In this document: one piece after another, positions 4,516-54,485 of the stretch
Layout of the letters: each line of letters opens with the position of its first letter
How positions within the stretch are numbered: the stretch's first letter is position 1
Assembly: GCA_016187035.1 (NCBI GenBank)
Contig: JACPKL010000001.1
Location: forward strand, 14,607 to 78,606
Source of the DNA: Candidatus Daviesbacteria bacterium
GTDB lineage: Bacteria; Patescibacteriota; Microgenomatia; Daviesbacterales; UBA10151
Length of the DNA: 64,000 bases
Direction: 5' to 3'
Position numbers and translations under genes: made by a program
The notes under the pieces: generated by a model
Database searches by the model: none
What the model saw: the letters and a program-made list of their open reading frames with translations, nothing else
What the model was told of the DNA's origin: nothing

Positions 4516-4519
4516 GAAT

Positions 4520-4640
4520 AATTTTTAATTTTAAGTTTTAAATTTTAATTGAATTTTAAATGTTTTAATGTTTTAAAATTTAATCATTTAGTCATTAAGA
4601 TTTGATTTTAAATTTAAAATTTGTACTTTAAAATTAATAC
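4520..4640. repeat. AT-rich intergenic array of degenerate heptamers (NTTTTAA-like)
   Basis: aatttta attttaa gttttaa attttaa ttgaatt ttaaatg ttttaat gttttaa ... between the PRTase start and the EndoQ stop. Confidence 0.55.
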
Positions 4641-4641
4641 T

Positions 4642-6021
4642 TTAATCAAATAACCCCAATTGCGGAATTTCATTCTTTTCCTCTTTTACAGATTCATCAT
4701 CAGACTGCCAAATTTTCACTACCCCATATACTCCATCATAACCAGGATCTATCACTAAATCACCGTCTCTGTCTTTTTTTACTCCTTCTGCAATTCTTTC
4801 TCCTGAGATTTTAGCTATTTCCTGAATGTCTACTTTGGTCAGAATCTTGATCTCACTACCTAAAGCAGTTGTTAGCTTTTTGTATTCATTTAAGACCTTC
4901 TGGGTTGTTGGAGCAGTATTAAAAGCCTCTGCTATTACCTGTAATAATGGTACTAACATTCTATATTCTGGCCTATCTAGGTTTTTGCTTTTAACCACCC
5001 CTTCTTCTTTAATTTCCCCTAACTCCTCTGCTCCTCTGTCTGCTAACTTCTCCACTCTTTCCATTACTCCTATTGTCAAACCTCTTTTGCAAACAGGACA
5101 GGTTGTTCCCTTAAGTTTTGAATCCTGCGGAGCATACTTAACATTACAATTTCTATGTCCTGTGTAGTGATACTTGCCTTCTTCAGGATAAAACTCAATT
5201 GTCCCAATCACTTTGTCATTGCGAGGGTCGCCGTGGCGACCCGTGGCAATCTCTTTTATTTCCAAGGAAGATTGCTTCGCTTTGCTCGCAATGACGGATA
5301 GTTGAGTAATAGCTCTCCATAAATTGTCATACGTAAACTCAGCCAGATCAAAAACTGTAGACTCCCTGCCTAGATTGGGTAAAGAATGAGCATCAGAAGA
5401 AGATAAAATTGATCTGTTGTCTAACTCTTTAATTCTCCAATTCATGGCCGGGGAAGAGCTTAAACCAGTTTCTATACCATAAACATATTCTGTTAAATCT
5501 TCAAAACACTCTTCCAAACTATCATAGCCGGATTCTGAACCAAATATGCCAAACCAGGGTGTCCAGGCATGCGCGCATACAAAAATAGCCTTGTCTGAAA
5601 CCTGCAAAGCTAAACTTAACAAATCTTTGGAAGATATTCCCACAATTGGTCTGCCGTCTGAGCCTAAATTAGCCCTTCTTGAAAGAAGTTCTTTTTGAAA
5701 CCTTTCTGCTGATGAGAAATCCGGTAAGTAAACTAAATTATGCACCCTTCTGCCCCTGCCTTTGTGAGAATAAATTGAAGCAATTTCTACAGTTAATAAA
5801 AATTTAACACTTGGATCTTTAGGATAAGTTAAAAAACCTGAGCCATCTTCTTTAAGCTGATTTTTAAGTTCTGTTAACCAAAGCGGATGCAGAAAATCTC
5901 CTGTACCTAATAAATCTATACCTTTCAGCTTACACCACTGCACCAAATTAGGAACATTCAGTTGTTGTGAACAAGCCCTGGAATACCTGGAATGAATATG
6001 CAAATCTGCAATATATGCCAT
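4642..6021 (-). CDS. Endonuclease Q-like PHP-domain nuclease with zinc finger
   Basis: MAYIADLHIHSRYSRA, GTGDFLHP, AHAWTPW, SSSDAHS, GKYHYTGHRNC..CPVCKRG and a C-terminal IDPGYDGVYG, collinear with archaeal EndoQ as I recall it. Carries an 81-bp in-frame palindromic element. Confidence 0.8.
   Translation of the reverse strand: MAYIADLHIHSRYSRACSQQLNVPNLVQWCKLKGIDLLGTGDFLHPLWLTELKNQLKEDGSGFLTYPKDPSVKFLLTVEIASIYSHKGRGRRVHNLVYLPDFSSAERFQKELLSRRANLGSDGRPIVGISSKDLLSLALQVSDKAIFVCAHAWTPWFGIFGSESGYDSLEECFEDLTEYVYGIETGLSSSPAMNWRIKELDNRSILSSSDAHSLPNLGRESTVFDLAEFTYDNLWRAITQLSVIASKAKQSSLEIKEIATGRHGDPRNDKVIGTIEFYPEEGKYHYTGHRNCNVKYAPQDSKLKGTTCPVCKRGLTIGVMERVEKLADRGAEELGEIKEEGVVKSKNLDRPEYRMLVPLLQVIAEAFNTAPTTQKVLNEYKKLTTALGSEIKILTKVDIQEIAKISGERIAEGVKKDRDGDLVIDPGYDGVYGVVKIWQSDDESVKEEKNEIPQLGLFD
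5215..5295. repeat. Palindromic element family A, 81 bp, in-frame in the EndoQ-like gene
   Basis: GTCATTGCGAG-GGTCGCCGTGGCGACCC-GTGGCAATCTC..GGAAGATTGC-TTCGCTTTG-CTCGCAATGAC. Translated as SVIASKAKQSSLEIKEIATGRHGDPRNDK. Confidence 0.9.
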
Positions 6022-6041: not shown

Positions 6042-7829
6042 TCACCTTTTAAACTGCTGATTATACATCTCAATCAATTCTTTAACAGTGGTGGCATCTT
6101 CCCCTCTCTTATCAGCTTCCCTGAATTTAATCAATCTGGGAAACCTTAAAGCATATCCTGGTTCACTATTTTCTTTACCAGCAGTGTGCAGGGGCGAACG
6201 GGTGATTTCATCTGCTAATACTTCAATTACTATTTTAGGTTCAACCCAAACACTTGGAACTATTAAAGAATTAACTCTGGTCGGTTTACTTTGAACTTTG
6301 AACTTTGAACTTTGAACTTGTATCTCTCTCCATTCTTCATCTGATAAACCTGTTCCTATTTTTGAAACAGTCACGAATTCATCTTTTAACTCATCATAAA
6401 CACCAACCAACAAAGCACCTGCTCCAAACTCCGCTCTTTTACCCTTGCCATAAATATAACCTAACATTACACAATCTATAGTATCTTGTAACTGCCCTGA
6501 GGAATGCCTTTTTAATTTCACCCAGTTAAAATTTCTGGCTCCGGCTGAATAAACCGAAGTCACTCTTTTAACCACTAACCCTTCAAGATTGGCAGTTAAT
6601 GCTTCTTGCAGTAACTCCTCCAAACGGTTAACCTCAATCACTATTTCACCTGGTTGAGGAATTAAAATACCGTTTTCTTTAATAGTATCTTTTAAAATCT
6701 CCATCCTCGCTTTTAAAGGTTTATTAATCAAAGATTTACCATCTTTATACATAATGTCAAAAACAAATGCTTTTAAAGGTAAGCTTTTAGCCATTTCCTC
6801 TACCTTGTACTTTCTTCTTCTTTTAGTAGTTTCCTGAAATGGTAAAAACTCATCTGAGGCAGGATTATAAGCTAACGCCTCGGCATCTAATATAATTGTT
6901 TGAGCCTGAACCTGATTGTAAACTGCCTCAATCAGTTCGGGAAACATATGAGTTGTCTCTTCTAAATTACGGGAGAAAATTCTAACTACTTTTCCATCCT
7001 TATGCAGCTGTGTTCTAAATCCATCAAATTTTTTCTGAACATGAGCTTCTCCTTCAAACTTTTCCAAAATAGTTTTAGCATCAGGCAATCTTTCTGCCAG
7101 CTGGGATCTGATGGGCCTGCCTACTTTGACATCCAGTTTTTGCACTCCTGCCAAACCCTTGGTCCATAAAGTCTCCCCAATCAACCCTAAATCAGATGTT
7201 TTATTGTATGCTTCTTCTAAACTTGATCTTTGCTTGCGATCTCCTAATTTTGCCAAAGCAAATGCATCTAAAATGGTCGGATCACCAATTCCTAACCTGG
7301 ATACTCCCAAAGGAATCCTGACCAAATGTTTGCCAGATACCCCATTAACCTGTTTTAATAAATCAGCCAGGGTGGAAACTTTTTTCTCTACAGTTCCCTC
7401 ACCTTGAGTTTGTGCTATACCTCTTAAAATCTCAAAGACTTCTTTAACTGTCATTCCGAGGTCCGATGAAATCGGACCGTGGGAATCTTTCTTAGTTAAG
7501 ATTGCCACGTCGTCCCGATTTAATCGGGACTCCTCGCAATGACGTTGGGCAACCAATCCTAAATCCCCTACTTTTCCATATTCTTTTAAAACCTCTTCCC
7601 TTTCCATCCCATAAGCCCTGGCAATAGCAGCAGCTATCAGCTTCTCACTCATACCAATTTCGATGGCTTCATAAAAAGGAGCTACCCTGCCCTGGATTAA
7701 ATAACTCACATGTCCAATCTCCCCAACATTCACTTTAGAAAAAAGCTCAGCCAAAATATCAATTAAAGAGAGTCTGGAGGATGTCTGTTCTAATTTTTCA
7801 AAATACTCAGCTAAGGTGGAAAAAGTCAT
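6042..7829 (-). CDS. lig: ATP-dependent DNA ligase (archaeal/eukaryotic type)
   Basis: Adenylation motif I KFDGFRTQLHK, EGLVVK, and an OB-fold C-terminus. Contains one family-A palindromic element and a heptamer tract, both in-frame. Confidence 0.9.
   Translation of the reverse strand: MTFSTLAEYFEKLEQTSSRLSLIDILAELFSKVNVGEIGHVSYLIQGRVAPFYEAIEIGMSEKLIAAAIARAYGMEREEVLKEYGKVGDLGLVAQRHCEESRLNRDDVAILTKKDSHGPISSDLGMTVKEVFEILRGIAQTQGEGTVEKKVSTLADLLKQVNGVSGKHLVRIPLGVSRLGIGDPTILDAFALAKLGDRKQRSSLEEAYNKTSDLGLIGETLWTKGLAGVQKLDVKVGRPIRSQLAERLPDAKTILEKFEGEAHVQKKFDGFRTQLHKDGKVVRIFSRNLEETTHMFPELIEAVYNQVQAQTIILDAEALAYNPASDEFLPFQETTKRRRKYKVEEMAKSLPLKAFVFDIMYKDGKSLINKPLKARMEILKDTIKENGILIPQPGEIVIEVNRLEELLQEALTANLEGLVVKRVTSVYSAGARNFNWVKLKRHSSGQLQDTIDCVMLGYIYGKGKRAEFGAGALLVGVYDELKDEFVTVSKIGTGLSDEEWREIQVQSSKFKVQSKPTRVNSLIVPSVWVEPKIVIEVLADEITRSPLHTAGKENSEPGYALRFPRLIKFREADKRGEDATTVKELIEMYNQQFKR
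6288..6320. repeat. Heptamer tract ACTTTGA x4.7 (in the ligase gene)
   Basis: ACTTTGAACTTTGAACTTTGAACTTTGAACTTG encodes VQSSKFKVQSK. Confidence 0.85.
7450..7543. repeat. Palindromic element family A, 94 bp, in-frame in the DNA ligase gene
   Basis: GTCATTCCGAG-GTCCGATGAAATCGGAC-CGTGGGAATCT..AGATTGCCACG-TCGTCCCGATTTAATCGGGAC-TCCTCGCAATGAC. Translated as RHCEESRLNRDDVAILTKKDSHGPISSDLGMT. Confidence 0.9.
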
Positions 7830-13100: not shown

Positions 13101-14194
13101 AGTAAATCCAAAAATTCATCAAATAGAAAACTAGCATCAAATGGGCCTGGACTTGCCTCAGGATGGAATTGAACAGCCAAGAATGGTTTTGTTTTATGCC
13201 TGATTCCTTCATTTGTACCGTCATTTAAATTAACAAACCATTCCTGCCAATCATTAGATAAAGATTTCATATCCACAGCAAAACCATGATTTTGAGAAGT
13301 GATAATGGCTTTTTTATTCTGCATATCTTGCACTGGCTGGTTTTGACCTCTGTGACCGAACTTCAATTTATAAGTATTGCCCCCTGCTGCTAAAGCCAGA
13401 ATTTGGCTGCCTAAACAAATACCAAATATTGGTATGTCTGTTTTCAGTAATTGTCTAGTTGTTTGGATGGTGGCTTTGGCTTGTTTTGGATCTCCTGGTC
13501 CTGGAGACACTGAGACTCCGTCAAAGTCCAATTTAGAATTTAAAGGATTAAAATCCCAAGGGACTTTGGTTATTTTTACGCCTCTTCTAACCAAACTTCT
13601 GATAATGTTCATCTTTACACCACAATCAACTAAGACTATATTTTTCTTACCACTGCCAAAAACTTCTACCTGATCTGTACTAACCTGTGGTAACACATTT
13701 CCTGCATTAGGATCATAATTTTGAATTTTGAATTTTGCTCTGCCGAAGGCAGTTTCGCTATGCGAAACATTTTGAATTTCTATCCTTCCCAGCATGACTC
13801 CATGCTCTCGCAGTTTCGTGGTTAATTGCCTGGTATCTATTCCCTGCAAAGCAGGTATTCCCTCTTCTTTAAGCCAAACATCTAGGTTCTTTTGACTTTC
13901 AAAGTGTGATGGATGATCAATATAATTTTGGACAATTAACCCTTTTACTTGAATTTTTTTTGATTCCCAAAACTCTGGATCTGGTACTCCATAATTTCCT
14001 ACCAGAGGATAGGTTAAAACCAGTATCTGTCCAAAATATGAAGGATCTGTCAAAGACTCAGGATAGCCTACCATACCAGTATTAAAAACCACCTCTCCTG
14101 AGGTACTCGAGAGTCCACTGGACTCTCTCCCCTCTGCCCCAAAAGATTGTCCTAAAAAAACTGTCCCATCGGACAGAATTAATTTTCCCTGCAT
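13097..14194 (-). CDS. carA: Carbamoyl-phosphate synthase small (glutaminase) subunit
   Basis: GEVVFNTGMVGYPESLTDPSY, with GATase triad context GICLGSQIL and VQFHPE. Start set at the ATG at 14194 (MQGKLILSDG). The track's longer ORF (to 14302) would overlap pyrB by 92 nt. Holds two in-frame repeat insertions. Confidence 0.9.
   Translation of the reverse strand: MQGKLILSDGTVFLGQSFGAEGRESSGLSSTSGEVVFNTGMVGYPESLTDPSYFGQILVLTYPLVGNYGVPDPEFWESKKIQVKGLIVQNYIDHPSHFESQKNLDVWLKEEGIPALQGIDTRQLTTKLREHGVMLGRIEIQNVSHSETAFGRAKFKIQNYDPNAGNVLPQVSTDQVEVFGSGKKNIVLVDCGVKMNIIRSLVRRGVKITKVPWDFNPLNSKLDFDGVSVSPGPGDPKQAKATIQTTRQLLKTDIPIFGICLGSQILALAAGGNTYKLKFGHRGQNQPVQDMQNKKAIITSQNHGFAVDMKSLSNDWQEWFVNLNDGTNEGIRHKTKPFLAVQFHPEASPGPFDASFLFDEFLDLL
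13718..13790. repeat. Composite insert in carA: heptamer tract (AATTTTG x3) plus two short hairpins plus a heptamer-like end
   Basis: AATTTTGAATTTTGAATTTTG-CTCTGCCGAAGGCAG-TTTCGCTATGCGAAA-CATTTTGAATTTC. Encodes IQNVSHSETAFGRAKFKIQNY in the inter-domain linker. Confidence 0.75.
14106..14133. repeat. Palindromic element family B core, in-frame in carA
   Basis: CTCGAGAGTCCACTGGACTCTCTCCCCT, a 28-mer identical to 40550-40577. Encodes GRESSGLSS. Confidence 0.85.
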
Positions 14195-23312: not shown

Positions 23313-24163
23313 AAGTATGTTCCCCTACCCCCTAAGGAGATCTTCTTGATTTGAGTCCCACACATTTTACATTTCTGTCTATTTCTGCCGTAACAATAAG
23401 CATAATCTAAATAATAACCTTTCTGCCCTTCGCTGTCTACAAAATTGGCTCTGGTAGAACCCCCAAACTTAATACCATCTTTTAAGGACTTGACTATACC
23501 ATAGTACAGCTTCTTAAATTGTTCGTCAGAAAGCTGAGAAACTAATGTTGCCGGATTAATCCCTGTATCAAAGCAGGCCTCATTAGCATAAATATTGCCT
23601 ATTCCTGAAACAACAGATTGATCCATAATAGCTGCTTTCACAGACTGAGATTTATGATTTAAGAGATTAGATTTAAGAATCTGCCAAGTGAAACTCTTTT
23701 CCAAAGGCTCTGGACCCAACTTTTCAAACAAACGATTTACGATTAACGATTTACGATTAACGATTTTTATCCAGCCGAATTTTCTTTGATCGTTAAAGTA
23801 AAGGTGTGATCCATCGCTAAAACTAAAAATAACCCTAGTATGCTTATTGGGCATATCCCCTGTCATATCTTCTGTTGGATGTCCTCCAATAAATTTGCTG
23901 TTACCATTAAAAACTAATTGTCCGCTCATCTTTAGGTGAAATAAAAGAGTCAAATTACCAGTTATATCTATGCCTAAAATCTTAGCTCTTCTCCATACTT
24001 TGAGTACTTTTCTACCCTGTAGATCCTGAGTGTAGTCGAAGGGTTGTCCTTTTTCATTTTGGAAAGATTTTGGGGAATTTATCTGGATTTTAGTTAATTT
24101 CAATCCTACAATTCTTTTCTCTAATCCAATTTTTATAATTTCTACTTCAGGTAATTCTGGCAT
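23291..24163 (-). CDS. mutM: Formamidopyrimidine-DNA glycosylase
   Basis: MPELPEVE N-terminus, LGPEPL, and a C-terminal zinc finger CKMCG..CPNCQ. Five heptamer units encode KIVNRKSLIVNR. Confidence 0.9.
   Translation of the reverse strand: MPELPEVEIIKIGLEKRIVGLKLTKIQINSPKSFQNEKGQPFDYTQDLQGRKVLKVWRRAKILGIDITGNLTLLFHLKMSGQLVFNGNSKFIGGHPTEDMTGDMPNKHTRVIFSFSDGSHLYFNDQRKFGWIKIVNRKSLIVNRLFEKLGPEPLEKSFTWQILKSNLLNHKSQSVKAAIMDQSVVSGIGNIYANEACFDTGINPATLVSQLSDEQFKKLYYGIVKSLKDGIKFGGSTRANFVDSEGQKGYYLDYAYCYGRNRQKCKMCGTQIKKISLGGRGTYFCPNCQR
23733..23767. repeat. Heptamer tract CGATTTA/CGATTAA x5 (in fpg)
   Basis: CGATTTACGATTAACGATTTACGATTAACGATTTT encodes KIVNRKSLIVNR. Confidence 0.85.
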
Positions 24164-33034: not shown

Positions 33035-34192
33035 TTAATACTCAGTCAAGTCCTCTAAATTTTTCTCCACCAATTCTAAAATTTCTTTTTTAAATCTAAC
33101 TTTTCCAAACTTCTCAGCGTTTTTGCGGCAGTCTTCGGTTTTGATACGATGATTCGTATCATCAAAGCGTTTAAGGACTTCTATTAAACTGTCCACAGAA
33201 ATTTGTCCTGGACAACCATATAATAATCCTGTTTTTCCATCTATGACTGTTTCTAAAAAGCCCCCGCTAAGCGGGGCTATGACCGGAGTTCCACAAACCT
33301 GGGCTTCTATTGAAGTAATCCCAAAATCCTCATCTTCTGAGGCCACAATTAAAGCCTGAGCATTAGACAGTAACTCTACTCTATCCTGATCAGATACCCA
33401 ACCCAGGAAAGTAGTTGGTAGTTGGTAGTTGGTAGCAAGCTTTTTTAGATTTTTTAATTCAGGACCAGATCCTGCTACTTTGAGTGGTAAACCTAATCTA
33501 CCACAAGCTTCTACCACTACCTCTACTCCCTTTCCCCTGACTAATCTACTCAGCACTAAATAATAAAATTTTGAATTTTGATTTGTATTTTTGATTTTTG
33601 AATTTTGAATTTTGAATTCTGCAAGATCCACTGGTGGGTAAATTACCACACTATCCCTTCTGTAAAATTTCTTGATCCGCTCTTGAACATTCTTAGAATT
33701 AGCAATTAAAATATCCGGTCTTTGGGAGGTCTCAAAATCATAAATTCTTAGAATATGATTAGCTAACTCCCCTAAAATTCTAGTAATAAAGTTTTTTTTA
33801 TAATTAAAAGAAGTCACATAACCATATAAAAACCTGGGCGGGGTATGAATGTAGCTTAAATGGAGCGTCTCGGGTTTAGTAATAACGGCTTTGGCAAAAT
33901 ATATGGCAGATGAAGAAATGACCAAATCATATTCAGATAAATCAAAACTTTCAAACATTAAACAAGCAAATACTCTGCAAGGAGACAACAGCTTATTGGC
34001 AAAAGGAAATTTTTGAAACCAGGAAGGCCTGATATCCCAATCCTTGAAACGCTTGCCATTCTCCCCCATTGCCTCCAAATTTACATAAGCAGTGTAGACA
34101 GGAGCATTAGGAAAGATTTCATGAAGGGCTTCTAAAACTCTTTCTGCTCCACCATATTCTCTTAAATAATCATGAGCTAATGCAACCTTCAT
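33035..34192 (-). CDS. Glycosyltransferase family 4 (GT-B fold)
   Basis: MKVALAHDYLREYGGAERV N-terminus and EDFGITSIEAQVCGTPVIA (EX7E region). Two in-frame heptamer tracts. Confidence 0.8.
   Translation of the reverse strand: MKVALAHDYLREYGGAERVLEALHEIFPNAPVYTAYVNLEAMGENGKRFKDWDIRPSWFQKFPFANKLLSPCRVFACLMFESFDLSEYDLVISSSAIYFAKAVITKPETLHLSYIHTPPRFLYGYVTSFNYKKNFITRILGELANHILRIYDFETSQRPDILIANSKNVQERIKKFYRRDSVVIYPPVDLAEFKIQNSKIKNTNQNSKFYYLVLSRLVRGKGVEVVVEACGRLGLPLKVAGSGPELKNLKKLATNYQLPTTFLGWVSDQDRVELLSNAQALIVASEDEDFGITSIEAQVCGTPVIAPLSGGFLETVIDGKTGLLYGCPGQISVDSLIEVLKRFDDTNHRIKTEDCRKNAEKFGKVRFKKEILELVEKNLEDLTEY
33411..33436. repeat. Heptamer tract GTAGTTG x3.7 (in GT4)
   Basis: GTAGTTGGTAGTTGGTAGTTGGTAGC encodes ATNYQLPTT. 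Confidence 0.85.
33567..33621. repeat. Heptamer tract AATTTTG/ATTTTTG, ~8 units (in GT4)
   Basis: AATTTTGAATTTTGATTTGTATTTTTGATTTTTGAATTTTGAATTTTGAATTCTG encodes FKIQNSKIKNTNQNSKF. The unit is the same as in the carA tract. Confidence 0.85.
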
Positions 34193-37022: not shown

Positions 37023-39347
37023 TTAATTTTCCTCCGGCTTCATTTCTCCCCAAGTTTTGCCTGCTTTTAAATCAACTACCACTGGTACTGATAATTCTAG
37101 AGCATTTTCCATTTTTTCTTTGACCATTTTAGCAATCTGGCGGACTTGTGGTGAGCCTGCCGAACCATCACATTCAAACAAAAGCTCATCATGAACTTGA
37201 AGAATTAACTTACAGTTATCAGTTTTCGGTTTTCTGTTTTCAGATATTGGTTTGCCGGTTTTCTGTTTACCAGATTGACTGATAACTGATGAACTTTCAT
37301 CCGACGACTGACCACTGAGAACCGATAACTCCTTATCAATTTCCACCATAGCCTTTTTAATCATGTCAGCTGAAGATCCCTGAATAGGATGATTAATTGC
37401 TGCTCTTTCTCCTTGAGATCTGATCATTCTATTTGAGGCTTTTAGCTCCGGCATATATCTTTTTCTACCCCAGATAGTCTCTACATAACCATTTTCATAC
37501 CCAAAAGCTAAAGTTTGCTCCATCCATTCCCGTACTTTAGGAAACTGCTCAAAATATTCCACTATGTATTGACGGGCTACTTCATATTCCACTCCTAGTT
37601 GCCTGCTTAAAGCATGTGGACCCTGGCCATAAAGAGTAGCAAAATTCATGGTTTTCCCAACATTTCTTTGCTCATAAGAAACCTTTCCCACAGGTACTTT
37701 AAAGATCTTTGCAGCAGTGGCGCTGTGGATATCCAAGCCTGCTAAAAAAGCCTGTTTTAATCCTGGATCATCTGCCAGATGAGCCATAATCCGAAGTTCT
37801 ATCTGAGAATAATCAGCTCCAAATAATACTTTTCCCTTGGGAGCAATAAAGGCTTTTCTGACCTCTCCTCCAAGTGTACCCCTGATTGGGATATTTTGAA
37901 GGTTGGGGTCCTGGGAAGAAACACGTCCTGTGGCAGCTCCTTCCACATTAAAAGTAGAATGTATTCTGCCGTCTTCCCCAACTGATTTTGGTAAAGCGTC
38001 AATATAGGTGGAAACTAACTTGAAAAGTTGGCGGTATTCCAACAAAAGGGGTACAGCAGGGTGAGCTATAGATAATTCTTTCAAAGTCTCCTCATTTGTT
38101 GACCTGCCGGTTTTGGTTTTTTTAAAAACAGGCAATTTTAACTCGTCAAAAAGCACTACCTGCAGTTGTTTTGGGCTGTTCAGATTAAACTGATGACCTA
38201 TTTTAGAGTAAATTTCTTTTTCAATATTAGTTAATTTAGCTTTTAAATCGGTCCCAAGCTTATTTAAAAACTTAAGATTTATTAATATTCCTGACTTGGA
38301 CATTTTTTCCAAAACCGGCTGGACTTGGAGATCTAAATCAGTAGTGTCATTGCGAGGAAGTTTACCCTGAGCCGATTCGGCCTGAGGGCTCACGGCCTCG
38401 AAGGCTTGTCGAAGGGTGGCAATCTTCCCACTTGAGGTGGAAGATTCCCACGGCCCTTCGGGCCTCGGAATGACAGGAAAAGGTAATCTGTTTATCAAGC
38501 TCTTAAATTCCAATTCTTCGAATAATTCTCTTACCTTATTAGCATCGTAATCATGTACTCTACAAGCTGCTAAATCTAGCTTGACAGGGGCATTTGTATC
38601 TAGAGTAGCTAATTTTTTACTCATCACAGCTGATTCTGCTCCCTCGGCCAGTAACTTTTGCATTCTTTCGGGTAAGGTCTTCAAATTTTTAGGCAAGTAG
38701 ATTTTCTCAATAGAACCGAATTGGTGAATCAATTTAGTGGCTGTTACATCTCCTATACCAGCTACCCCTGGAATGTTATCTGAAGCATCTCCTGCCAAAG
38801 CTTTGTAATCTATCATCTGAGGAGGCATAAAACCATATTTAGCTACAAACTCCTCTACTCCATAAAGGCCCACATCCTGTAAAGTTTTTTTTGGCATTAA
38901 TACTTTAATATTTTCATCAATCAGCTGCATAATATCCCTGTCACCCGTGACTATTATAACTTCTAATTTTTGAGCTTTGAGCTTTGAGCTTTGAGTTGCC
39001 AAAGCGCCTATTAAATCATCTGCCTCATAACCTGACAGCCTAAACTCAGGAATATTAAAAGCTTTCACTACCTGATAAACCCTATCATACTGGGAAGATA
39101 AACCATCATCAGCCGGTCCCCTGGTAGCTTTATACTGAGTGTAAGCTTGATGCCTGAATGTTGGCCCTTTTTCATCCCAGGCAATGGCTAAAAAATCAGG
39201 TTTTAATTCATTTAAAGTCCGAAGAAGCATTGAGGAAAAACCATATACAGCATTAATTAACTCACCATAAGATGTGGAAAAAGGAGGAGTGGCGTGATAA
39301 GCCCGATGAAGTAAAGCATTCCCATCAACCAAAACCAAATGTTTCAT
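37023..39347 (-). CDS. polA: DNA polymerase I: 5'-nuclease plus polymerase domains, no 3'-5' exonuclease domain
   Basis: N-terminal 5'-3' exonuclease (VLVDGNALLHRAYHA, GDRDIMQL, GVAGIGDVTATKLI). Pol A motifs DYSQIELRI, RNVGKTMNFATLYG and QVHDELLFE. The two domains are joined by a translated 129-bp palindromic element. A second ~40-aa heptamer-derived insert precedes QVHDE. Confidence 0.9.
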   Translation of the reverse strand: MKHLVLVDGNALLHRAYHATPPFSTSYGELINAVYGFSSMLLRTLNELKPDFLAIAWDEKGPTFRHQAYTQYKATRGPADDGLSSQYDRVYQVVKAFNIPEFRLSGYEADDLIGALATQSSKLKAQKLEVIIVTGDRDIMQLIDENIKVLMPKKTLQDVGLYGVEEFVAKYGFMPPQMIDYKALAGDASDNIPGVAGIGDVTATKLIHQFGSIEKIYLPKNLKTLPERMQKLLAEGAESAVMSKKLATLDTNAPVKLDLAACRVHDYDANKVRELFEELEFKSLINRLPFPVIPRPEGPWESSTSSGKIATLRQAFEAVSPQAESAQGKLPRNDTTDLDLQVQPVLEKMSKSGILINLKFLNKLGTDLKAKLTNIEKEIYSKIGHQFNLNSPKQLQVVLFDELKLPVFKKTKTGRSTNEETLKELSIAHPAVPLLLEYRQLFKLVSTYIDALPKSVGEDGRIHSTFNVEGAATGRVSSQDPNLQNIPIRGTLGGEVRKAFIAPKGKVLFGADYSQIELRIMAHLADDPGLKQAFLAGLDIHSATAAKIFKVPVGKVSYEQRNVGKTMNFATLYGQGPHALSRQLGVEYEVARQYIVEYFEQFPKVREWMEQTLAFGYENGYVETIWGRKRYMPELKASNRMIRSQGERAAINHPIQGSSADMIKKAMVEIDKELSVLSGQSSDESSSVISQSGKQKTGKPISENRKPKTDNCKLILQVHDELLFECDGSAGSPQVRQIAKMVKEKMENALELSVPVVVDLKAGKTWGEMKPEEN
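37212..37330. repeat. Degenerate heptamer array with inverted ends (CAGTTATCAG / CTGATAACTG) in polA
   Basis: CAGTTAT CAGTTTT CGGTTTT CTGTTTT CAGATAT TGGTTTG CCGGTTT TCTGTTT ACCAGAT TGACTGA TAACTGA ... encodes LSGQSSDESSSVISQSGKQKTGKPISENRKPKTDN just upstream of QVHDELLFE. Confidence 0.7.
38346..38474. repeat. Palindromic element family A, 129 bp, in-frame in polA
   Basis: GTCATTGCGAG..(extra GC-rich hairpins CCTGAGCCGATTCGGCCTGAGGGCTCACGGCCTCGAAGGC)..GTGGCAATCTTCCCACTTGAGGTGGAAGATTCCCAC-GGCCCTTCGGGCC-TCGGAATGAC. Translated as VIPRPEGPWESSTSSGKIATLRQAFEAVSPQAESAQGKLPRND. Confidence 0.9.
38971..38995. repeat. Heptamer tract TGAGCTT x3.5 (in polA)
   Basis: TGAGCTTTGAGCTTTGAGCTTTGAG encodes SKLKAQKLE. 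Confidence 0.85.
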
Positions 39348-48423: not shown

Positions 48424-49412
48424 AAATAATCAAGTTTCATCATCTTTTTAACTTCTGCTAAAGTTTTTTGGGCTTCTGCTCTTATCTTTTCTGTCCCTTT
48501 TCTTAGGATCTCATCTACCAAATCAGGTTTATTCTCATACTCAGCCCTTTTTTTCCTAATAGGTTCCAGAAAATTATTTAAAACTTTAGTAAGGTACTTT
48601 TTTACCTCAACATCGCCTACTTGGCCTTTTGTGTATTGTTCTTTATAACTTGTTACTTGTGCCTTGTCATCTTCTGTACCAAAGGCATCCAGATATATAA
48701 AAACAGGGTTGCCTCCAACAGTTCCGGGATCTGTGGGATGTATTCTTTTTGGATCTGTATACATACCCATGACCTTTTTTTCTACTTCTTCTTGGGTATC
48801 TGTTAGGAAAATAGCATTACCCAATGATTTGCCCATCTTAGCCTGCCCGTCAGTACCAGGCAGAGTTGGCACCTCTCCTATTAAAGGTTCTGGGATGGGA
48901 AAAACCTCCCCATATTGGTCATTAAACTTTTGGGCAATGTCTCTGGCAAACTCCACATGAGCCTTTTGATCCTTACCCACAGGCACCAAATTGGCTCTGG
49001 GAAGCAAAATATCAGCAGCCATTAAAACCGGGTAGTAAAAAAGTCCAACAGTATCTTCAGACCCCTGGTCCAGTTTTTCTTTTAAAGCAGGCTGCCTGGC
49101 AATTAAACTTCTGGGAGTAAGCAGGCTAAGAAAATATGCCAGCTCCAAAACCTCCGGCACTTTGGATTGAACAAAAAAAGTTACTCTCTCAGGCTCTAAT
49201 CCAACTGATAAATACCCAAGCATCAGCCCCCTGATATTTGATTCTAATTCCCGGGTTCTATTAAAATGAGTAGTCAAAGCATGAAGATCAACCAAAGGGA
49301 TAAACATTTCATATTCCTGTTGCAGCTTAACTCTATTTTTTAATGACCCCACATAATTACCTAAATGAAAACTATCATAAGTAGGCCTATCCCCTGTTAA
49401 AATCCTTTTCAT
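48420..49412 (-). CDS. trpS: Tryptophan--tRNA ligase
   Basis: Class I motifs GDRPTYDSFHLGNY (HIGH-like) and KMGKS (KMSKS). 330 aa. A 21-nt heptamer module encodes DKAQVTS. Confidence 0.9.
   Translation of the reverse strand: MKRILTGDRPTYDSFHLGNYVGSLKNRVKLQQEYEMFIPLVDLHALTTHFNRTRELESNIRGLMLGYLSVGLEPERVTFFVQSKVPEVLELAYFLSLLTPRSLIARQPALKEKLDQGSEDTVGLFYYPVLMAADILLPRANLVPVGKDQKAHVEFARDIAQKFNDQYGEVFPIPEPLIGEVPTLPGTDGQAKMGKSLGNAIFLTDTQEEVEKKVMGMYTDPKRIHPTDPGTVGGNPVFIYLDAFGTEDDKAQVTSYKEQYTKGQVGDVEVKKYLTKVLNNFLEPIRKKRAEYENKPDLVDEILRKGTEKIRAEAQKTLAEVKKMMKLDYF
48648..48668. repeat. Heptamer module ACTTGTT-ACTTGTG-CCTTGTC (in trpS)
   Basis: The 20-mer ACTTGTTACTTGTGCCTTGT is identical to 52002-52021. 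A variant lies at 52266-52286 in the SucD-like 3' end. Confidence 0.8.
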
Positions 49413-50464: not shown

Positions 50465-50851
50465 TCAAACTTTAGCGAACTGCTTTTCTAGCTTATCATC
50501 AAACGTTCTAAAATCTTCAACCTTGAGCTTCTTCGCATAAAGTAGGTTATAGCAATCTTCTATTTCTAATGTAGTGTTTCTGAATAAATGCAAAACCTCA
50601 AACAATAAATCTCGATTTTCAATATTAAGACTTAAGGTCAGTATCTTGTATAAAGCCTCAGTCAAACTATCTCTATCTTGACCATAACTAGCTTCCAAAA
50701 CCCAGGCTACCTCAAAAAAGACCACCACGGAAGTTATCAATTCCAATTCACCTCGAGCTGCTTTGAGAAATAGCTCTTTAGACTGCTGGTAATGAGAATC
50801 AATATCATTTAGCAAAAATCTAAGGAAGTAGTTTGTATCAACAAAAGTCAT
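50465..50851 (-). CDS. vapC: PIN-domain toxin VapC
   Basis: MTFVDTNYFLRFLLND, with acidic residues spaced as in a PIN domain. Overlaps the antitoxin by 4 nt. Confidence 0.8.
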   Translation of the reverse strand: MTFVDTNYFLRFLLNDIDSHYQQSKELFLKAARGELELITSVVVFFEVAWVLEASYGQDRDSLTEALYKILTLSLNIENRDLLFEVLHLFRNTTLEIEDCYNLLYAKKLKVEDFRTFDDKLEKQFAKV

Positions 50852-51108
50852 TTAATGTGGTATTTTCTTAAAAAATGTTCTTCTTTGGCTTTTCTAACAA
50901 CTTCCTTAATACTGTTACCATACCATCTCTTAGGCAAAGCTACTGATCCAGCAAGCTCCTCCACCACCCTTTCAGCTGGAGTAATCTTTAAAGACCCATT
51001 TTCCTCTGATACCATCACCCTTTGTCCGATTTTGAGCCTAGCTCTTTCAAAAATCTTGGCAGGGATAGTTAATTGTTTTTTGCCAGTAATTGTAGCTATC
51101 TGAACCAT
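50848..51108 (-). CDS. vapB: AbrB/MazE/SpoVT-type antitoxin
   Basis: ITGKKQLTIPAKIFERARLKIGQRVMV, a swapped-hairpin barrel motif. Confidence 0.75.
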   Translation of the reverse strand: MVQIATITGKKQLTIPAKIFERARLKIGQRVMVSEENGSLKITPAERVVEELAGSVALPKRWYGNSIKEVVRKAKEEHFLRKYHIK

Positions 51109-51200: not shown

Positions 51201-51950
51201 CTACCAAGGCAATTTTCTGGGTGAAGTCCCATCATATTCAATCTCTTCACTAGGTATTCTTCTGAATGGTTTTTCTCTGACCCATTCTTCAAATACATGG
51301 GCTATGAGTCCTACTACCCTACCGATTAAGAAAAATCCCTTGCCTAACCTGTAGTCAAAGCCCATATCAGAAATAACAGCTGCTATGGCTCCATCCACAT
51401 TAACAGGTATTTTTTTACCTTTCTTTTGCTCTAAAACCTGTTCTACTTTAACTGCCAACTCACAATATTCCCCAAAAAAACCTAATTTTTTAGCCTTTTC
51501 AAAAATCTGTTTAGCTCTGGGATCCTCCGTCTTATAAACTTTGTGTCCAAATCCAGCAATTCTGTCTCCTGCTGCTAATACTTTTTCCACCAATTTTTCA
51601 GCAGACAGGCCCATCTGCAGCAGTCTGGCACATTCTTCAATTGCTCCTCCATGATATTCCCCTATTCCTAATACTCCTGCTGCCACAGCAGCCTGCATGG
51701 GATTGCCGGCAGAGGCAGAATTCCTGGCATTAGTTGTGGATGGCGGACCCATGCCATTATCAATGGTGGAGATTAAAATAGCATCCAGCATAGCTTTCTC
51801 TTTTTCTGTAGGCAGCTCCCCTTTTAATTCCAGCCAGATAGCCGCTGTGAAGTTTACCTTATCCATCAACTCAGTCACTTTATAACCATGAATCAAAGTC
51901 TCCCCATCAACAATTCCAGCAATAGATGTTTTCCACTTTTTATCAGACAT
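51201..51950 (-). CDS. Short citrate-synthase-family protein (citryl-CoA lyase-like)
   Basis: GFGHKVYKTEDPRA citrate-synthase signature in a ~250-aa protein. ATG at 51950 (MSDKKWK) is preferred over the TTG at 51986. Confidence 0.65.
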   Translation of the reverse strand: MSDKKWKTSIAGIVDGETLIHGYKVTELMDKVNFTAAIWLELKGELPTEKEKAMLDAILISTIDNGMGPPSTTNARNSASAGNPMQAAVAAGVLGIGEYHGGAIEECARLLQMGLSAEKLVEKVLAAGDRIAGFGHKVYKTEDPRAKQIFEKAKKLGFFGEYCELAVKVEQVLEQKKGKKIPVNVDGAIAAVISDMGFDYRLGKGFFLIGRVVGLIAHVFEEWVREKPFRRIPSEEIEYDGTSPRKLPW

Positions 51951-51959
51951 AATAGTAAC

Positions 51960-52024
51960 TAGTAACAAGTACAGTAAAGGTAACAAGTTGAAATAAAAAT
52001 AACTTGTTACTTGTGCCTTGTTAC
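51960..52024. repeat. Long imperfect hairpin built from heptamer modules (ACTTGTT/ACTTGTG/CCTTGTT and complement)
   Basis: TAGTAACAAGTACAGTAAAGGTAACAAGT - tgaaataaaaata - ACTTGTTACTTGTGCCTTGTTACTA. Lies between the four-helix-bundle fragment stop and the ccl-like start. Confidence 0.7.
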
Positions 52025-52263
52025 TATTTCTGTGAAATGTATAACCTCCAAATTATATGTCCTGTTTCTGATCTTAGCAAGCAGACATCCTGAAATTCTG
52101 TTTCTTTTATTAATTTTCTCTGGTAAGAAAACTCAAGCAAATATTCCGTTTCTGCAAGCGAGCCTAAGGCTATAGATAAAAATCTATAAAATTCTTTCTT
52201 ACTGTTTCTAGCATGCCCTTCAACAATGTTTGTTGGAACTGATAAGCACGCTCTTTGTAGTTG
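52024..52263 (-). pseudogene. 5'-truncated four-helix-bundle protein gene (23S rRNA intervening-sequence protein family)
   Basis: Not in the ORF track (contains no Met). Own translation: QLQRACLSVPTNIVEGHARNSKKEFYRFLSIALGSLAETEYLLEFSYQRKLIKETEFQDVCLLRSETGHIIWRLYISQK then stop. Matches the family core RA..S...NI.EG..R.S.KEF..FL.IA.GS..E. It begins right after the SucD-like stop, and roughly 40 N-terminal codons are absent. Confidence 0.7.
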
Positions 52264-53169
52264 TTACTTGTCACTTGTGCCTTGTTGCTTTAGTAATTCT
52301 GGGATTTCATCTGGAGTTTTGGCAATAATAACTCCAGCTGCTTTTAAGGCTGTTATTTTTGATTTATAACTGCCCTTATCACCATAAACTATGGCTCCTG
52401 CATGACCAAGTTTTGTACCTTGGGGCAACTTTTCGGCAAATAACCCTGAGATAAAGGCTACCACTTTTTTGCTAAACTTACCACTTTTAATAAGCTGTGC
52501 AGCCTCTTCTTCATAAGTTCCCCCAATTTCTCCAAATAAAACTACTGCTTTAGTTTGCTCATCTTTTTCAAAGTCTACCAATAAATCAGCAAAGCTTGAC
52601 CCCACCAGTATATCTCCTCCAATACCCACAACAGTTGATTGCCCAATGCCATTTTTGGTTAGAATCCAGGATACCTCAGATGCCATTCCCCCGCTTTTAG
52701 AAATTATCCCCACATTTCCTTTAGAATAAACGCCTCTGGGATCATCCCCGCCAATTGAGCCCACTTTACCTATACCTGGAGAAATAATCCCAATAGATGA
52801 GGGGCCTACAATTCTCACTCCATTTTGTTTGGCTAAAGCTATGGCCTTGGCGCTATCTGCTATTGGAATATGTTCTGTTAAAACATTGATTAGAGGAATT
52901 TTGTTATTGATTGCCTCTTCTATTGCACCAAAGGCGGCAAAATTTGGCACAGCTATGAAAGAGGTATTAATCCCGGGGTGATTATCCAATGCTTCAGAAA
53001 CTGTATTATATACAGGTATTCCGGAAACCTCATATCCACCCTTACCAGGAGTTACTCCGGCTAAGACTTTAGTTCCATAATTCCTCATCTGTAAGGCTGC
53101 TTTAGAGCCTTCTTTACCAGTGATACCCTGGATTAAAACCTTAGTCTTTTCTGTTACTAAAACACTCAT
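52264..53169 (-). CDS. Succinyl-CoA synthetase alpha-subunit family protein (CoA-binding plus CoA-ligase domains)
   Basis: VLIQGITGKEGS, SKSGGMASEV and phosphohistidine loop LGHAGAIV. The C-terminal QQGTSDK is encoded by a heptamer module. Confidence 0.8.
   Translation of the reverse strand: MSVLVTEKTKVLIQGITGKEGSKAALQMRNYGTKVLAGVTPGKGGYEVSGIPVYNTVSEALDNHPGINTSFIAVPNFAAFGAIEEAINNKIPLINVLTEHIPIADSAKAIALAKQNGVRIVGPSSIGIISPGIGKVGSIGGDDPRGVYSKGNVGIISKSGGMASEVSWILTKNGIGQSTVVGIGGDILVGSSFADLLVDFEKDEQTKAVVLFGEIGGTYEEEAAQLIKSGKFSKKVVAFISGLFAEKLPQGTKLGHAGAIVYGDKGSYKSKITALKAAGVIIAKTPDEIPELLKQQGTSDK
52266..52286. repeat. Heptamer module ACTTGTC-ACTTGTG-CCTTGTT (3' end of the SucD-like gene)
   Basis: Third copy of the module. 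Together with 51960-52024 it brackets the truncated four-helix-bundle gene. Confidence 0.75.
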
Positions 53170-53202
53170 ATGAATTCTTTACTCCTTTTTTTATCTTCGT
53201 AG

Positions 53203-53252
53203 ATTTAAGATGTAAGAATTAAGAATTAAGATCTTAAATCGTAAATCATAAA
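53203..53252. repeat. Intergenic heptamer tract with central palindrome TTAAGATCTTAA
   Basis: ATTTAAG ATGTAAG AATTAAG AATTAAG ATCTTAA ATCGTAA ATCATAA ATC. Confidence 0.7.
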
Positions 53253-54485
53253 TCACTTAACTCCATATGCTAACTCCACCATGATTTTTGCAGTTGAAGT
53301 CATTGGAGTCTCCCTGCCAAATATATGAAAATCAAACCCTTCCTTACGGCCTACTCTTTTTAGCTCCTCAAAAGCTTCCTGATCCCTTGGCCCGCCTCTT
53401 CTTATCACAATTGGGTAAGCAGGCTTTGGTTTAATTTCCCTAAGCCCTTCTACAAAGCCCATTAAAGTTTCATAAATATCAGTAAAATTGGCTGTGCCTC
53501 CCACAAACCAACAACCCTTAAGTCCTGGTTTTCCTAGAACAATTTTAGTTAATTTTTTCAATTTTTCTCTGGGAGGGTTGCCTGAGTGTTCAGTATAATT
53601 AGCCGCCCTTCCTCCAAAAGTTACTAAAGCATCCATGTTAACTATAGACCCTCCACCTCCTGCAGCAATGACTGCAATGTCTCCATCCCGAAGGTCCCAA
53701 TAAACAGAGCCTGCAGTACCTCTGTGATCTCCTTCATCTATTTTTCTGGCTTCAATTTCAGCCTCAGTTGGGGGTCTGCCAAACAAATTTCTTTGGGGAA
53801 ATTTAATTTCCCTTCTAAAGTCTGCATCATCGTCCAAGATAACTTTGGCATCTAAAGCATAGACTCTCTTGTCATTGCGAGGTCCGCCCTGGCGGACCGT
53901 GGCAATCTTTCCATTTGAGATGGAAGATTCCTCGCTTATGCTCGGAATGACAGAAGTGGTAGAAACTACCAAAGGATTTATTTCTGCCAGTTCTAAGTCA
54001 TATTTTGTGAATACCTCCCAAAGCTCTGTAATAGTATCTGTAAATTGGACATAATGTTCAACGATCGTTGAAGGTAACGTCATATTTAGAGGATCAACAG
54101 GAAAACTCTCTGCGCCTTTTTCCTCTACTCCTGTCCCACCTTTGCCAAAAGTTAACACAGGTCCTCTTGTTGCTGTGGAGTATGAGAAAGACAGATAATA
54201 CTCCTTACCAACATCAACCATTTGTTCAACTAAAACCTTCTCCACCTTCTCATTGTTAATTGTCTTTGAAAGTAATTCTTCAATCTTAAATCTTAAATCT
54301 TCCATCTTCTCTACCACCAAAATCCCCCCAGCTTGTGCTCTTTTTCCAGACAAAACTTGAGCTTTCAAAACCAAAGGAAGTTTTAAGGTTACTTCCTGAT
54401 CTGCAGATTCTAAGAGTTGTGACTGGGGAACATTAATCCCACAACTTTTAAAAAGTTGTTTGCCTTCAAATTCGAAGAGTTGCAT
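53253..54485 (-). CDS. Succinyl-CoA synthetase beta-subunit / ATP-citrate-lyase beta-like ATP-grasp protein
   Basis: N-terminal ATP-grasp (MQLFEFEGKQLFKSCGI). C-terminal ligase-CoA-like IAAGGGGSIVNMDALVTFGGRAANYTEHSGNP. Carries an 81-bp family-A element in-frame between the halves. Confidence 0.75.
   Translation of the reverse strand: MQLFEFEGKQLFKSCGINVPQSQLLESADQEVTLKLPLVLKAQVLSGKRAQAGGILVVEKMEDLRFKIEELLSKTINNEKVEKVLVEQMVDVGKEYYLSFSYSTATRGPVLTFGKGGTGVEEKGAESFPVDPLNMTLPSTIVEHYVQFTDTITELWEVFTKYDLELAEINPLVVSTTSVIPSISEESSISNGKIATVRQGGPRNDKRVYALDAKVILDDDADFRREIKFPQRNLFGRPPTEAEIEARKIDEGDHRGTAGSVYWDLRDGDIAVIAAGGGGSIVNMDALVTFGGRAANYTEHSGNPPREKLKKLTKIVLGKPGLKGCWFVGGTANFTDIYETLMGFVEGLREIKPKPAYPIVIRRGGPRDQEAFEELKRVGRKEGFDFHIFGRETPMTSTAKIMVELAYGVK
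53871..53951. repeat. Palindromic element family A, 81 bp, in-frame in the SucC-like gene
   Basis: GTCATTGCGAG-GTCCGCCCTGGCGGAC-CGTGGCAATCTTTCCATTTGAGATGGAAGATTCCTC-GCTTATG-CTCGGAATGAC. Translated as SVIPSISEESSISNGKIATVRQGGPRNDK. Confidence 0.9.
54285..54301. repeat. Heptamer tract CTTAAAT x2.4 (in the SucC-like gene)
   Basis: See 4229-4259. Confidence 0.8.

Follow-up and report, generated by a model that had tools for sequence, protein, structure and literature searches.

A repeat-armed four-helix-bundle cassette, probably in recent decay, at an operon junction of a Candidatus Daviesbacteria genome

Intervening sequences (IVSs) that carry an open reading frame (ORF) are found in the 23S rRNA genes of several bacteria, including Leptospira, Brucella and Xanthomonas, where they are inserted at helix 25 or 45. 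The IVS of Coxiella burnetii lies in helix 45 and encodes the protein S23p. It is closed by a 28-bp terminal stem and has three tandem GACAGAT heptamers just before the ORF; the heptamer copy number varies between strains, the insert is excised by RNase III and its ORF is subject to decay, including a 176-bp deletion (PMC4990558). ORFs of the same family have also been described inside rRNA insertions of bacteria of the candidate phyla radiation (CPR) (10.1101/2024.02.27.582315) and, in a cyanobacterium, between cmr3 and cmr2 (PMC3936711). Here we analyze a member of this family in a stretch of 64,000 nucleotides from a Candidatus Daviesbacteria genome (contig JACPKL010000001.1; the whole stretch is called the window below). 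Between a SucD-like and a citrate-synthase-like gene, the window holds what we take, with a probability of about 0.9, to be a recently decayed copy of a cassette in which a four-helix-bundle gene is bracketed by arms of tandem heptamers, an arrangement of a type found family-wide.

This region is a free-standing counterpart of the ORF-bearing 23S rRNA IVS. It shares with the IVS a loop that encodes a protein of this family, complementary terminal arms that enclose the ORF in a long stem, tandem heptamers of variable copy number directly before the start, and a stem that outlasts an ORF prone to deletion. Unlike the IVS, the window element sits outside rRNA, between two protein genes of an operon, and its arms are built of nothing but tandem units, with a further direct copy. 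Cleavage by RNase III has been shown for the IVS, whereas for the window element it would have to follow by analogy. An earlier note on this DNA, made from its letters alone, had already drawn the parallel, and the Coxiella stem and heptamers beside the same kind of ORF make it an apt one. What appears to be new is that an IVS-type element stands free at operon junctions and that its tandem-repeat arms are family-wide.

A second precedent is provided by the short tandemly repeated repetitive sequences (STRRs) of cyanobacteria, tandem 7-nt units that often form intergenic hairpins in operons and were described without an explanation (PMC2670836). Heptamer repeats are over-represented in bacteria more widely, likewise unexplained (PMC4692102, PMC4679880). 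The window arms share with STRRs their tandem 7-nt build and their capacity to form hairpins, a likeness in kind and not a match to the named cyanobacterial families, and arrays of this sort flank annotated four-helix-bundle genes on Nostoc plasmids. In contrast, STRRs have been described as lone repeats in heterocystous cyanobacteria, whereas the window host belongs to the CPR and the architecture occurs in many phyla. Our search, with subscription-only literature outside it, found no paper linking STRRs or heptamer repeats to this gene family and none on a general association of arms and gene; only the Coxiella IVS paper notes heptamers beside the ORF.

The element between sucD and the citrate-synthase-like gene

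The genes around the element all lie on the minus strand, where the local order is SucC-like, SucD-like, citrate-synthase-like (Table 1). The cassette is placed between the SucD-like stop (TAA at 52266-52264) and the citrate-synthase-like start, in the same orientation as both genes. Immediately after this stop, and in the same frame, opens a reading frame of 79 sense codons (52263-52027) that ends in TAG (52026-52024) followed by TAA. Its peptide, QLQRACLSVPTNIVEGHARNSKKEF...WRLYISQK, matches PF05635 (23S_rRNA_IVP) at 75.5 bits (cut-off 33.8, E 4.6e-21) over positions 34-103 of 106 in the profile, so that the N-terminal third is missing, and no ATG, GTG or TTG is found near its 5' end. The earlier note had recognized this Met-less, SucD-adjacent frame as a family member with the right coordinates, its 80 codons being 79 sense codons and the TAG. 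To judge by its sequence, the window copy is a pseudogene of the PF05635 / TIGR02436 family, which falls short of a full domain (about 105-125 residues) with a usable start. The motif S-x-x-x-N-x-x-E-G is present in the remnant as SVPTNIVEG, with the N and E that are invariant in the family alignment; the family motif has been given as GxxRxxxSxxxNxxE (PMC3936711). By sequence similarity the family is homologous to proteins of solved structure (2GSC at E 5.5e-19, also 2RLD).

Another Daviesbacteria genome (L040) has an intact gene of 128 codons at the same junction, with a GTG start inside the upstream arm and a slightly shorter product in the NCBI call. The protein scores 116.7 bits against PF05635 (E 6.8e-34) and 109.2 bits against TIGR02436 (cut-off 24, E 1.2e-31). 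Alignment with this ortholog reveals a 5' deletion of 130 nt in the remnant, whose two breakpoints share a CAA microhomology, and puts the remnant out of frame with the GTG start. The two copies differ at a ratio of nonsynonymous to synonymous divergence (dN/dS) of 0.07 with dS 1.26, compared with a dN/dS of 0.04 for sucD. This low ratio, together with the lack of internal stops, indicates that purifying selection acted on the gene over most of the divergence and that the truncation is recent. The 130-nt deletion leaves the remnant and SucD in one frame with a single TAA (52264-52266) between them, and read-through would give a SucD-remnant fusion; the shared frame is probably a coincidence.

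The arms are characterized by a 21-nt module of three heptamers, ACTTGTYACTTGTGCCTTGTT, which is exact at 52002-52022 and 52266-52286 and recurs with one mismatch at 48648-48668; 100 shuffles of the sequence yielded no copies by chance. Scanned for the CTTGT core at a spacing of 7, the window gave these three arrays and no others, with all three on one strand. Three module copies had been claimed around the gene. The two exact ones stand, while the complementary segment 51960-51989 holds two GTAACAAGT copies and is not a full third copy. Nor are the exact copies each other's stem partners, as had been supposed: they lie in the upstream arm A and the downstream copy A', flanking the remnant in direct orientation (A' is 92% identical to A over 24 nt), and the stem partner is the divergent third arm, a. 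Arm A also encodes the last 7 SucD codons and the stop (QQGTSDK*). Since about 120 homologs have the canonical end ...TPDEIPxLLK at 294 aa, the 7-residue tail of the window SucD is read from arm A.

Both a local hairpin and pairing across the gene had been thought possible, and folding supports the two. The segment 51960-51989 forms a perfect 10-bp stem with 52001-52010 and pairs at 86% over 21 nt with 52008-52028, and the inverted repeats of arm a connect it to A' (I1, I5 and I8) and, across the gene, to A (I2 and I6). For the local hairpin the fold energy is -22.9 kcal/mol (z = -3.4, 0/200 shuffles as good). When the 356-nt region is folded as a whole, the pairing of A with the downstream arm, in its distal part, spans the gene and encloses the 10-bp hairpin (z = -2.7; 1/100 shuffles as good). 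The L040 element has the same upstream arm (here placed after a TGA stop), direct copy, loop and inverted arm, and its minimum-free-energy and centroid structures both pair A with a around the ORF. By folding, complementary termini thus enclose the ORF in the window and in L040 alike. No Rfam family covers the arms. An Rfam scan of the window returned three tRNAs and no other match, and the element is not in an rRNA gene. An intrinsic terminator consists of a G+C-rich stem followed by a run of T on the transcribed strand; no terminator-like site was predicted on the minus strand within 51700-53400.

Filled, truncated, gene-less and empty states are all found at the sucD-citrate-synthase junction when the window and its relatives are compared. 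The junction is empty in L139 (TAA, T, ATG; no heptamers) and in L140 holds a gene-less hairpin (ATCAAGT GTCCAAGT AAACAAGT, ~55 nt, AAAACTTGTATCTTGTAACTTGG) of heptamer type NNCAAGT / ACTTGNN, with SucD again bearing an arm-encoded tail. A different four-helix-bundle cassette, with AAGGGGG-type and CCCTTCA-type arms, occupies the sucC-sucD junction of L141; in other relatives these two genes overlap. Comparison of filled and empty junctions defined no target-site duplication.

Table 1. Features of the element and its surroundings, in window coordinates
Feature	Position	Strand	Remarks
SucC-like gene	53253-54485	minus	
Gene-less heptamer hairpin at the sucC-sucD junction	53201-53255	minus	(GATTTAN)n then (CTTAANT)n; reported by Tandem Repeats Finder (TRF)
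SucD-like CoA-binding / ligase subunit gene	52264-53169	minus	Pfam CoA_binding, Ligase_CoA, Succ_CoA_lig
Upstream arm A	52259-52289	minus	reads AGCAACAAGGCACAAGTGACAAGTAACAA; run of NACAAGN heptamers, exact module inside
5'-truncated four-helix-bundle pseudogene (PF05635 / TIGR02436)	52024-52263	minus	79 codons + TAG, without start
Downstream direct copy A'	52002-52025	minus	reads AGTAACAAGGCACAAGTAACAAGT; overlaps the double stop of the remnant; kept in L040
Hairpin loop, 11 nt, A/U-rich	51990-52000	minus	same loop sequence in L040
Inverted arm a	51951-51989	minus	reads AACTTGTTAC CTTTACTGT ACTTGTTAC TAGTTACTATT; ends 1 nt before the downstream ATG
Citrate-synthase-like gene (citryl-CoA lyase type)	51201-51950	minus	ATG at 51950-51948; orthologs carry PF00285 Citrate_synt
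Solitary module copy in a TrpRS-like class-I aminoacyl-tRNA synthetase gene	48648-48668	minus	in frame, encodes DKAQVTS

In Daviesbacteria the junctions within this three-gene operon form a hot spot where small selfish genes settle. A ribbon-helix-helix (RHH) plus PIN toxin-antitoxin pair lies between sucD and the citrate-synthase-like gene in L137 (2415-3091), and a 97-aa GIY-YIG gene, flanked by a non-tandem inverted repeat (GTCATCCCGAGCGAAG / CTTCGCTTGGTCGGGATGAC), lies between sucC and sucD in L138 (1158-1451). Just downstream of the operon segment in the window, 50465-51108 contains ORFs of 86 and 128 aa that we name, from their sequence alone, a PIN-type toxin-antitoxin pair.

Repeat arms across the gene family

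A scan of metagenome contigs recovered 80 loci with relatives at about 49-66% identity, from which 73 non-redundant genes were kept with 100-nt flanks. In the first 40 loci, nearly all flanks have 7- or 8-nt tandem units before the start and complementary units after the stop, with unit sequences that vary by locus (CACAAGT, GCACCAGA, GCATAAGA, CGTAAGA, CCCAGG and others). For the 73 genes, strict three-unit periodicity was observed at period 7 in 18% of upstream and 22% of downstream flanks, against 2% of control windows, and at period 8 in 29% and 21%, against 0%; other periods occur in at most 4% of flanks, about the control level. Within 3-kb flanks of these loci, the arrays are concentrated at the two ends of the gene.

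The two arms of a locus also match each other. Duplex energy averages -53.2 kcal/mol for matched upstream-downstream pairs and -35.8 kcal/mol for pairs from different loci (p = 7e-16), and the arm match beats 100 dinucleotide shuffles at 60/73 loci, inverted in 44 and direct in 16. The inverted arms have a median length of ~30 nt and are 82% complementary; those in direct orientation consist for the most part of 8-nt GCTGGCAA-type units, in which the core is palindromic.

The same arrangement surrounds genes annotated 'four helix bundle protein' in cultured bacteria. The upstream and downstream arms are (GGGAGTA)x8 and (ACTCCCT)x5 on Nostoc edaphicum pNe_5, (GTCAGGA)x5 and its complement on Nostoc punctiforme pNPUN02, (GGGAAAA) and (TTTTCCC) in Geminocystis, and (AAGGTTYA) and (TRAACCTT) in Riemerella anatipestifer. 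On Nostoc PCC 7120 plasmids the upstream arm is disrupted by an insertion sequence and the downstream arm is (CTTCTGC)n. The annotated genes include HUN01_RS02755 of N. edaphicum, NPUN_RS35280 of N. punctiforme pNPUN02 and K6T44_RS09915 of R. anatipestifer. No close relatives of the gene were found on viral contigs, which carry more distant ones (34-61% identity), recovered with an alignment as query, with the same architecture. The repeat-armed architecture is family-wide and crosses phyla; its general form is a purine-rich 7- or 8-nt array, a four-helix-bundle ORF (TIGR02436 / PF05635) and a complementary array. The proposal that the heptamer modules are the arms of the gene's own unit, which may be mobile or processed, gains from the shared arms of L040 and from the 60/73 relatives with significant arms. 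Intact copies lacking heptamer flanks would have spoken against it; L040, Nostoc, Geminocystis, Riemerella and the viral-contig relatives are all armed.

Sharing of 6-mers between arms follows protein identity (Mantel rho 0.24, 0/500 permutations as high) and copies on one contig use different units from each other, which argues that the arms are part of the element and not of the host. On the coding strand the upstream arm is purine-rich in 43/50 loci (p = 2e-7). It begins a median of 1 nt past the stop of the upstream ORF, and the next ORF starts a median of 15 nt past the end of the downstream arm. With this flush fit the cassette takes up the junction, and the ends of both host genes would come together if a stem formed. 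The arrays abut the start codon or the ribosome-binding site. At loci where both neighbors could be called, crudely, as the longest stop-to-stop frames, the neighbor strands are ++ at 24, +- at 6, -+ at 6 and -- at none.

Two paralogs with 81% identity stand at different places on one contig (L120). A 99% identical cassette with octamer arms occurs in L126 (2706-3416) and L129 (33-593), in a spacer-like position at the end of a CRISPR array with a 37-nt repeat, GTTGGAATACTTGACCTCATTTAAAAGGGATTGCGAC, and a spacing of 76-77; a 41-nt direct repeat, which takes in part of the CRISPR repeat, bounds the cassette. Genes that are nearly identical and stand in different contexts were considered as a sign of recent transposition and set aside, most pairs being the same locus sampled twice; the L126/L129 pair was likewise rejected, as one CRISPR array with different spacers. 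Evidence for recent movement of the cassette is weak.

Gene-less arrays and other heptamers

The module in its exact 20-nt form was found at 49 genome loci with G+C from 0.35 to 0.70, in phyla that include Acidobacteriota, Bacteroidota, Omnitrophota and Elusimicrobia as well as in Daviesbacteria and others. Searches with jackhmmer and with a profile of 120 homologs placed the gene beside it only in L040, so that the module is no marker for the gene, and its recurrence reflects the use of CACAAGT and CACAAGG units by many phyla. Short hairpins account for 15 of the 49 loci, always in the order (CACAAGK)n then (MCTTGTG)n. The gene-less hairpin at the sucC-sucD junction of the window has a weak fold (-13.4 kcal/mol, z = -1.6) and has no more in common with the cassette than its position and type of repeat. 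Heptamer hairpins that stand at operon junctions without a gene are similar to repetitive extragenic palindromic (REP) sequences and miniature inverted-repeat transposable elements (MITEs), and may be to the cassette as MITEs are to transposons. Unlike these palindromes, they have arms of tandem short units in place of a unique inverted repeat, no transposase or REP-associated tyrosine transposase (RAYT) as partner and no defined target duplication.

The solitary module in trpS had been regarded as a possible footprint of the unit, a reading that we do not retain. The orthologous gene of L035 carries the same 20-mer and that of L040 has (CAAACTA)x4 of the same length at this site. As the module is in frame and many unrelated arrays also lie within ORFs, it appears to be an in-ORF array and not an excision scar, and is probably not part of the cassette. 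The window contains about ten other period-7 arrays, of which at least 7 are in frame within ORFs, with unrelated units.

In-frame arrays in minus-strand ORFs are located at 6288-6319, 13717-13737, 23732-23766, 33411-33435, 33567-33618, 37222-37268 and 38969-38995. Their units include CAAAGTT, CAAAATT, AATCGTW, CAACTAC and CTCAAAG, among others, and they encode short peptides, for example IQVQSSKFKVQSK and AEFKIQNSKIKNTNQNSKF. Orthologous sites can differ in unit at the same length: AATCGTW in the window (23732-23766) corresponds to AACAAGK in L022 (near 6604-6623), and NACAAGN at the trpS site of the window to CAAACTA in L040. These differences suggest concerted evolution or replacement of arrays in place. 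Five in-frame NACAAGN heptamers (...EQIVQQVTSDKAQVTSKKGRRIMILAP...) are conserved in the uvrA-like genes of three metagenome-assembled genomes (MAGs) of the CPR (L037, L042 and L050). The 20-nt module of the window trpS is also present in the trpS of a MAG (CAYNFQ01 contigs L004, L009, L035 and L039; G+C 0.35-0.39) labelled 'uncultured Gammaproteobacteria', probably wrongly; the contig with this trpS equals in length the one that carries an 82%-identical four-helix-bundle gene (P0016). Elsewhere in the window, two minus-strand ORFs are separated by an A/T-rich segment of 127 nt (4519-4645) in which periodicities of 6 to 19 nt overlap.

Mechanism, alternatives and significance

By analogy with the IVS, we propose that an intact cassette would be transcribed by read-through of the host operon and that its two arms could then pair into a stem of ~20-55 bp, looping out the ORF. 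Such looping would rejoin the upstream stop and the downstream start, and could explain why the insertion is tolerated. The stem would be a double-stranded RNA substrate for RNase III, with which the size and complementarity of the arms are compatible. Built of tandem units, arms could slip, expand and re-register; the stem would be robust to slippage, and both expansion and loss would be favored. The direct copies A and A' may in addition offer a recombination route that deletes the ORF and leaves a solo hairpin, from the truncated to the gene-less state. In the window, the sole remaining consequences would be the RNA hairpin and the arm-encoded SucD tail.

Several observations weigh against parts of this account. 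In both the window and L040, arm a has A' and not A as its nearest partner, and the local hairpin may therefore win over the gene-enclosing stem. Direct arms make up 16/60 of the significant loci, and GCTGGCAA-type units pair imperfectly through their palindromic core. The Nostoc edaphicum cassette is antisense to the flanking ribonucleotide reductase genes, and the strand counts of neighbors depend on crude calls. Mismatches between arms comprise 65 that are G:U-compatible in sense, 60 in antisense and, predominantly, 197 transversions, and sense and antisense duplex energies do not differ (39 versus 32 loci, p = 0.55). With no wobble signature, selection for RNA pairing is not demonstrated, and an origin of the complementarity at the DNA level is equally possible. 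Finally, vertical inheritance of the cassette in Daviesbacteria extends over dS > 1, and it is therefore not a fast-moving element there. We give the loop-out and RNase III mechanism slightly less than an even chance, and regard the explanation as a whole, decayed cassette and mechanism together, as somewhat favored.

The missing wobble bias fits a different account, in which the arms are terminal repeats, or hairpin recombination substrates, of a mobile cassette at the DNA level. The protein would then act in mobility or arm upkeep, complementarity would come from the making of the arms and not from selection on RNA, and gene-less hairpins would be MITE-like derivatives. The four states of one junction, the L120 paralogs, the cassette with its 41-nt bounds in the CRISPR array, the 15/49 exact-module loci that are short hairpins in constant order and the co-divergence of arms with the protein can all be read in this way. 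Yet profile searches detected no recombinase, nuclease or transposase domain in the four-helix-bundle protein, no target-site duplication can be defined, and inheritance in Daviesbacteria has long been vertical. Co-orientation with neighbors (24 versus 0) and flush placement between stop and start point instead to constraints on the transcript. We consider a purely DNA-level role unlikely, though substantial enough to be weighed.

The tandem units might alternatively be binding sites for the protein itself, one per 7-8 nt, serving autoregulation or packaging of its own transcript, with the stem secondary. Solved homologs are pentameric (2GSC; PMC4990558), and sequence comparison makes the protein, which is under purifying selection, a homolog of Avd, the accessory protein of diversity-generating retroelements (DGRs), which shares the four-helix-bundle fold family, is pentameric and binds nucleic acid (PMC10053308). 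Co-variation of unit and protein, the use of different units by copies within one genome and the position of the arrays beside the start codon or ribosome-binding site would also suit binding sites. Common descent of gene and arms explains the co-variation equally, however; the downstream arm is a complement and not a second copy in 44/60 loci, unlike a single-strand binding array, and arrays outlast the gene (L140 and window 53201-53255). This explanation is distinctly unlikely.

We find it quite improbable that the arrays are ordinary slippage repeats of the host, with the gene having landed in, or stayed beside, a pre-existing array hairpin. Among the long simple-sequence repeats of bacteria, heptamers are indeed the most frequent class (PMC4679880, PMC4692102), arrays without a gene are far more numerous than four-helix-bundle genes, and the window itself has its many unrelated in-frame arrays. 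Against this stand the excess of arrays at gene ends (18-29% versus 0-2% of control windows at the 73 loci), the far better match of arms within than between loci, units that track the protein and not the host, and the empty orthologous junction of L139, which is without any array. That the region is the remnant of a DGR with the gene as its avd is hardly credible, as the similarity of the L040 protein to Avd models (PF22296 bAvd 30.8 bits, DivGenRetAVD 27.7 bits) is below the cut-offs (40 and 80 bits) and far below TIGR02436 and PF05635, and the gene has sucD and a citrate-synthase-like gene as neighbors with no reverse transcriptase or template/variable repeat pair at the locus. An integron cassette, the marks of which are a single 3' attC site and an integrase, was also set aside as a reading, with no search aimed at either mark.

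For annotation, the decayed cassette shows that arm sequence leaks into neighboring proteins, as in the SucD tail, and into gene starts. The family annotated 'four helix bundle protein' is very common and has solved structures, and we know of no function proposed for it since 1993; nor, to our knowledge, is there an explanation for the heptamer repeats of bacteria, with STRRs known since 1990. These may be one problem. If the gene is systematically bracketed by arms from the CPR to Nostoc and Riemerella, then the 23S rRNA IVS would be only the most familiar setting of a cassette that is far more widespread, the heptamer hairpins that lack a gene at operon junctions would have a plausible origin, and both questions could be tested in culturable organisms. 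A bolder and, on present evidence, doubtful reading takes the cassettes as gene-bearing parents of the heptamer and octamer hairpins of many bacteria, with a protein that seeds, expands or maintains arrays; it would span cyanobacterial STRRs, the repeats of structural-RNA inserts and in-frame gene arrays. If true, these cassettes would be a new class of genetic element without a recognizable recombinase.

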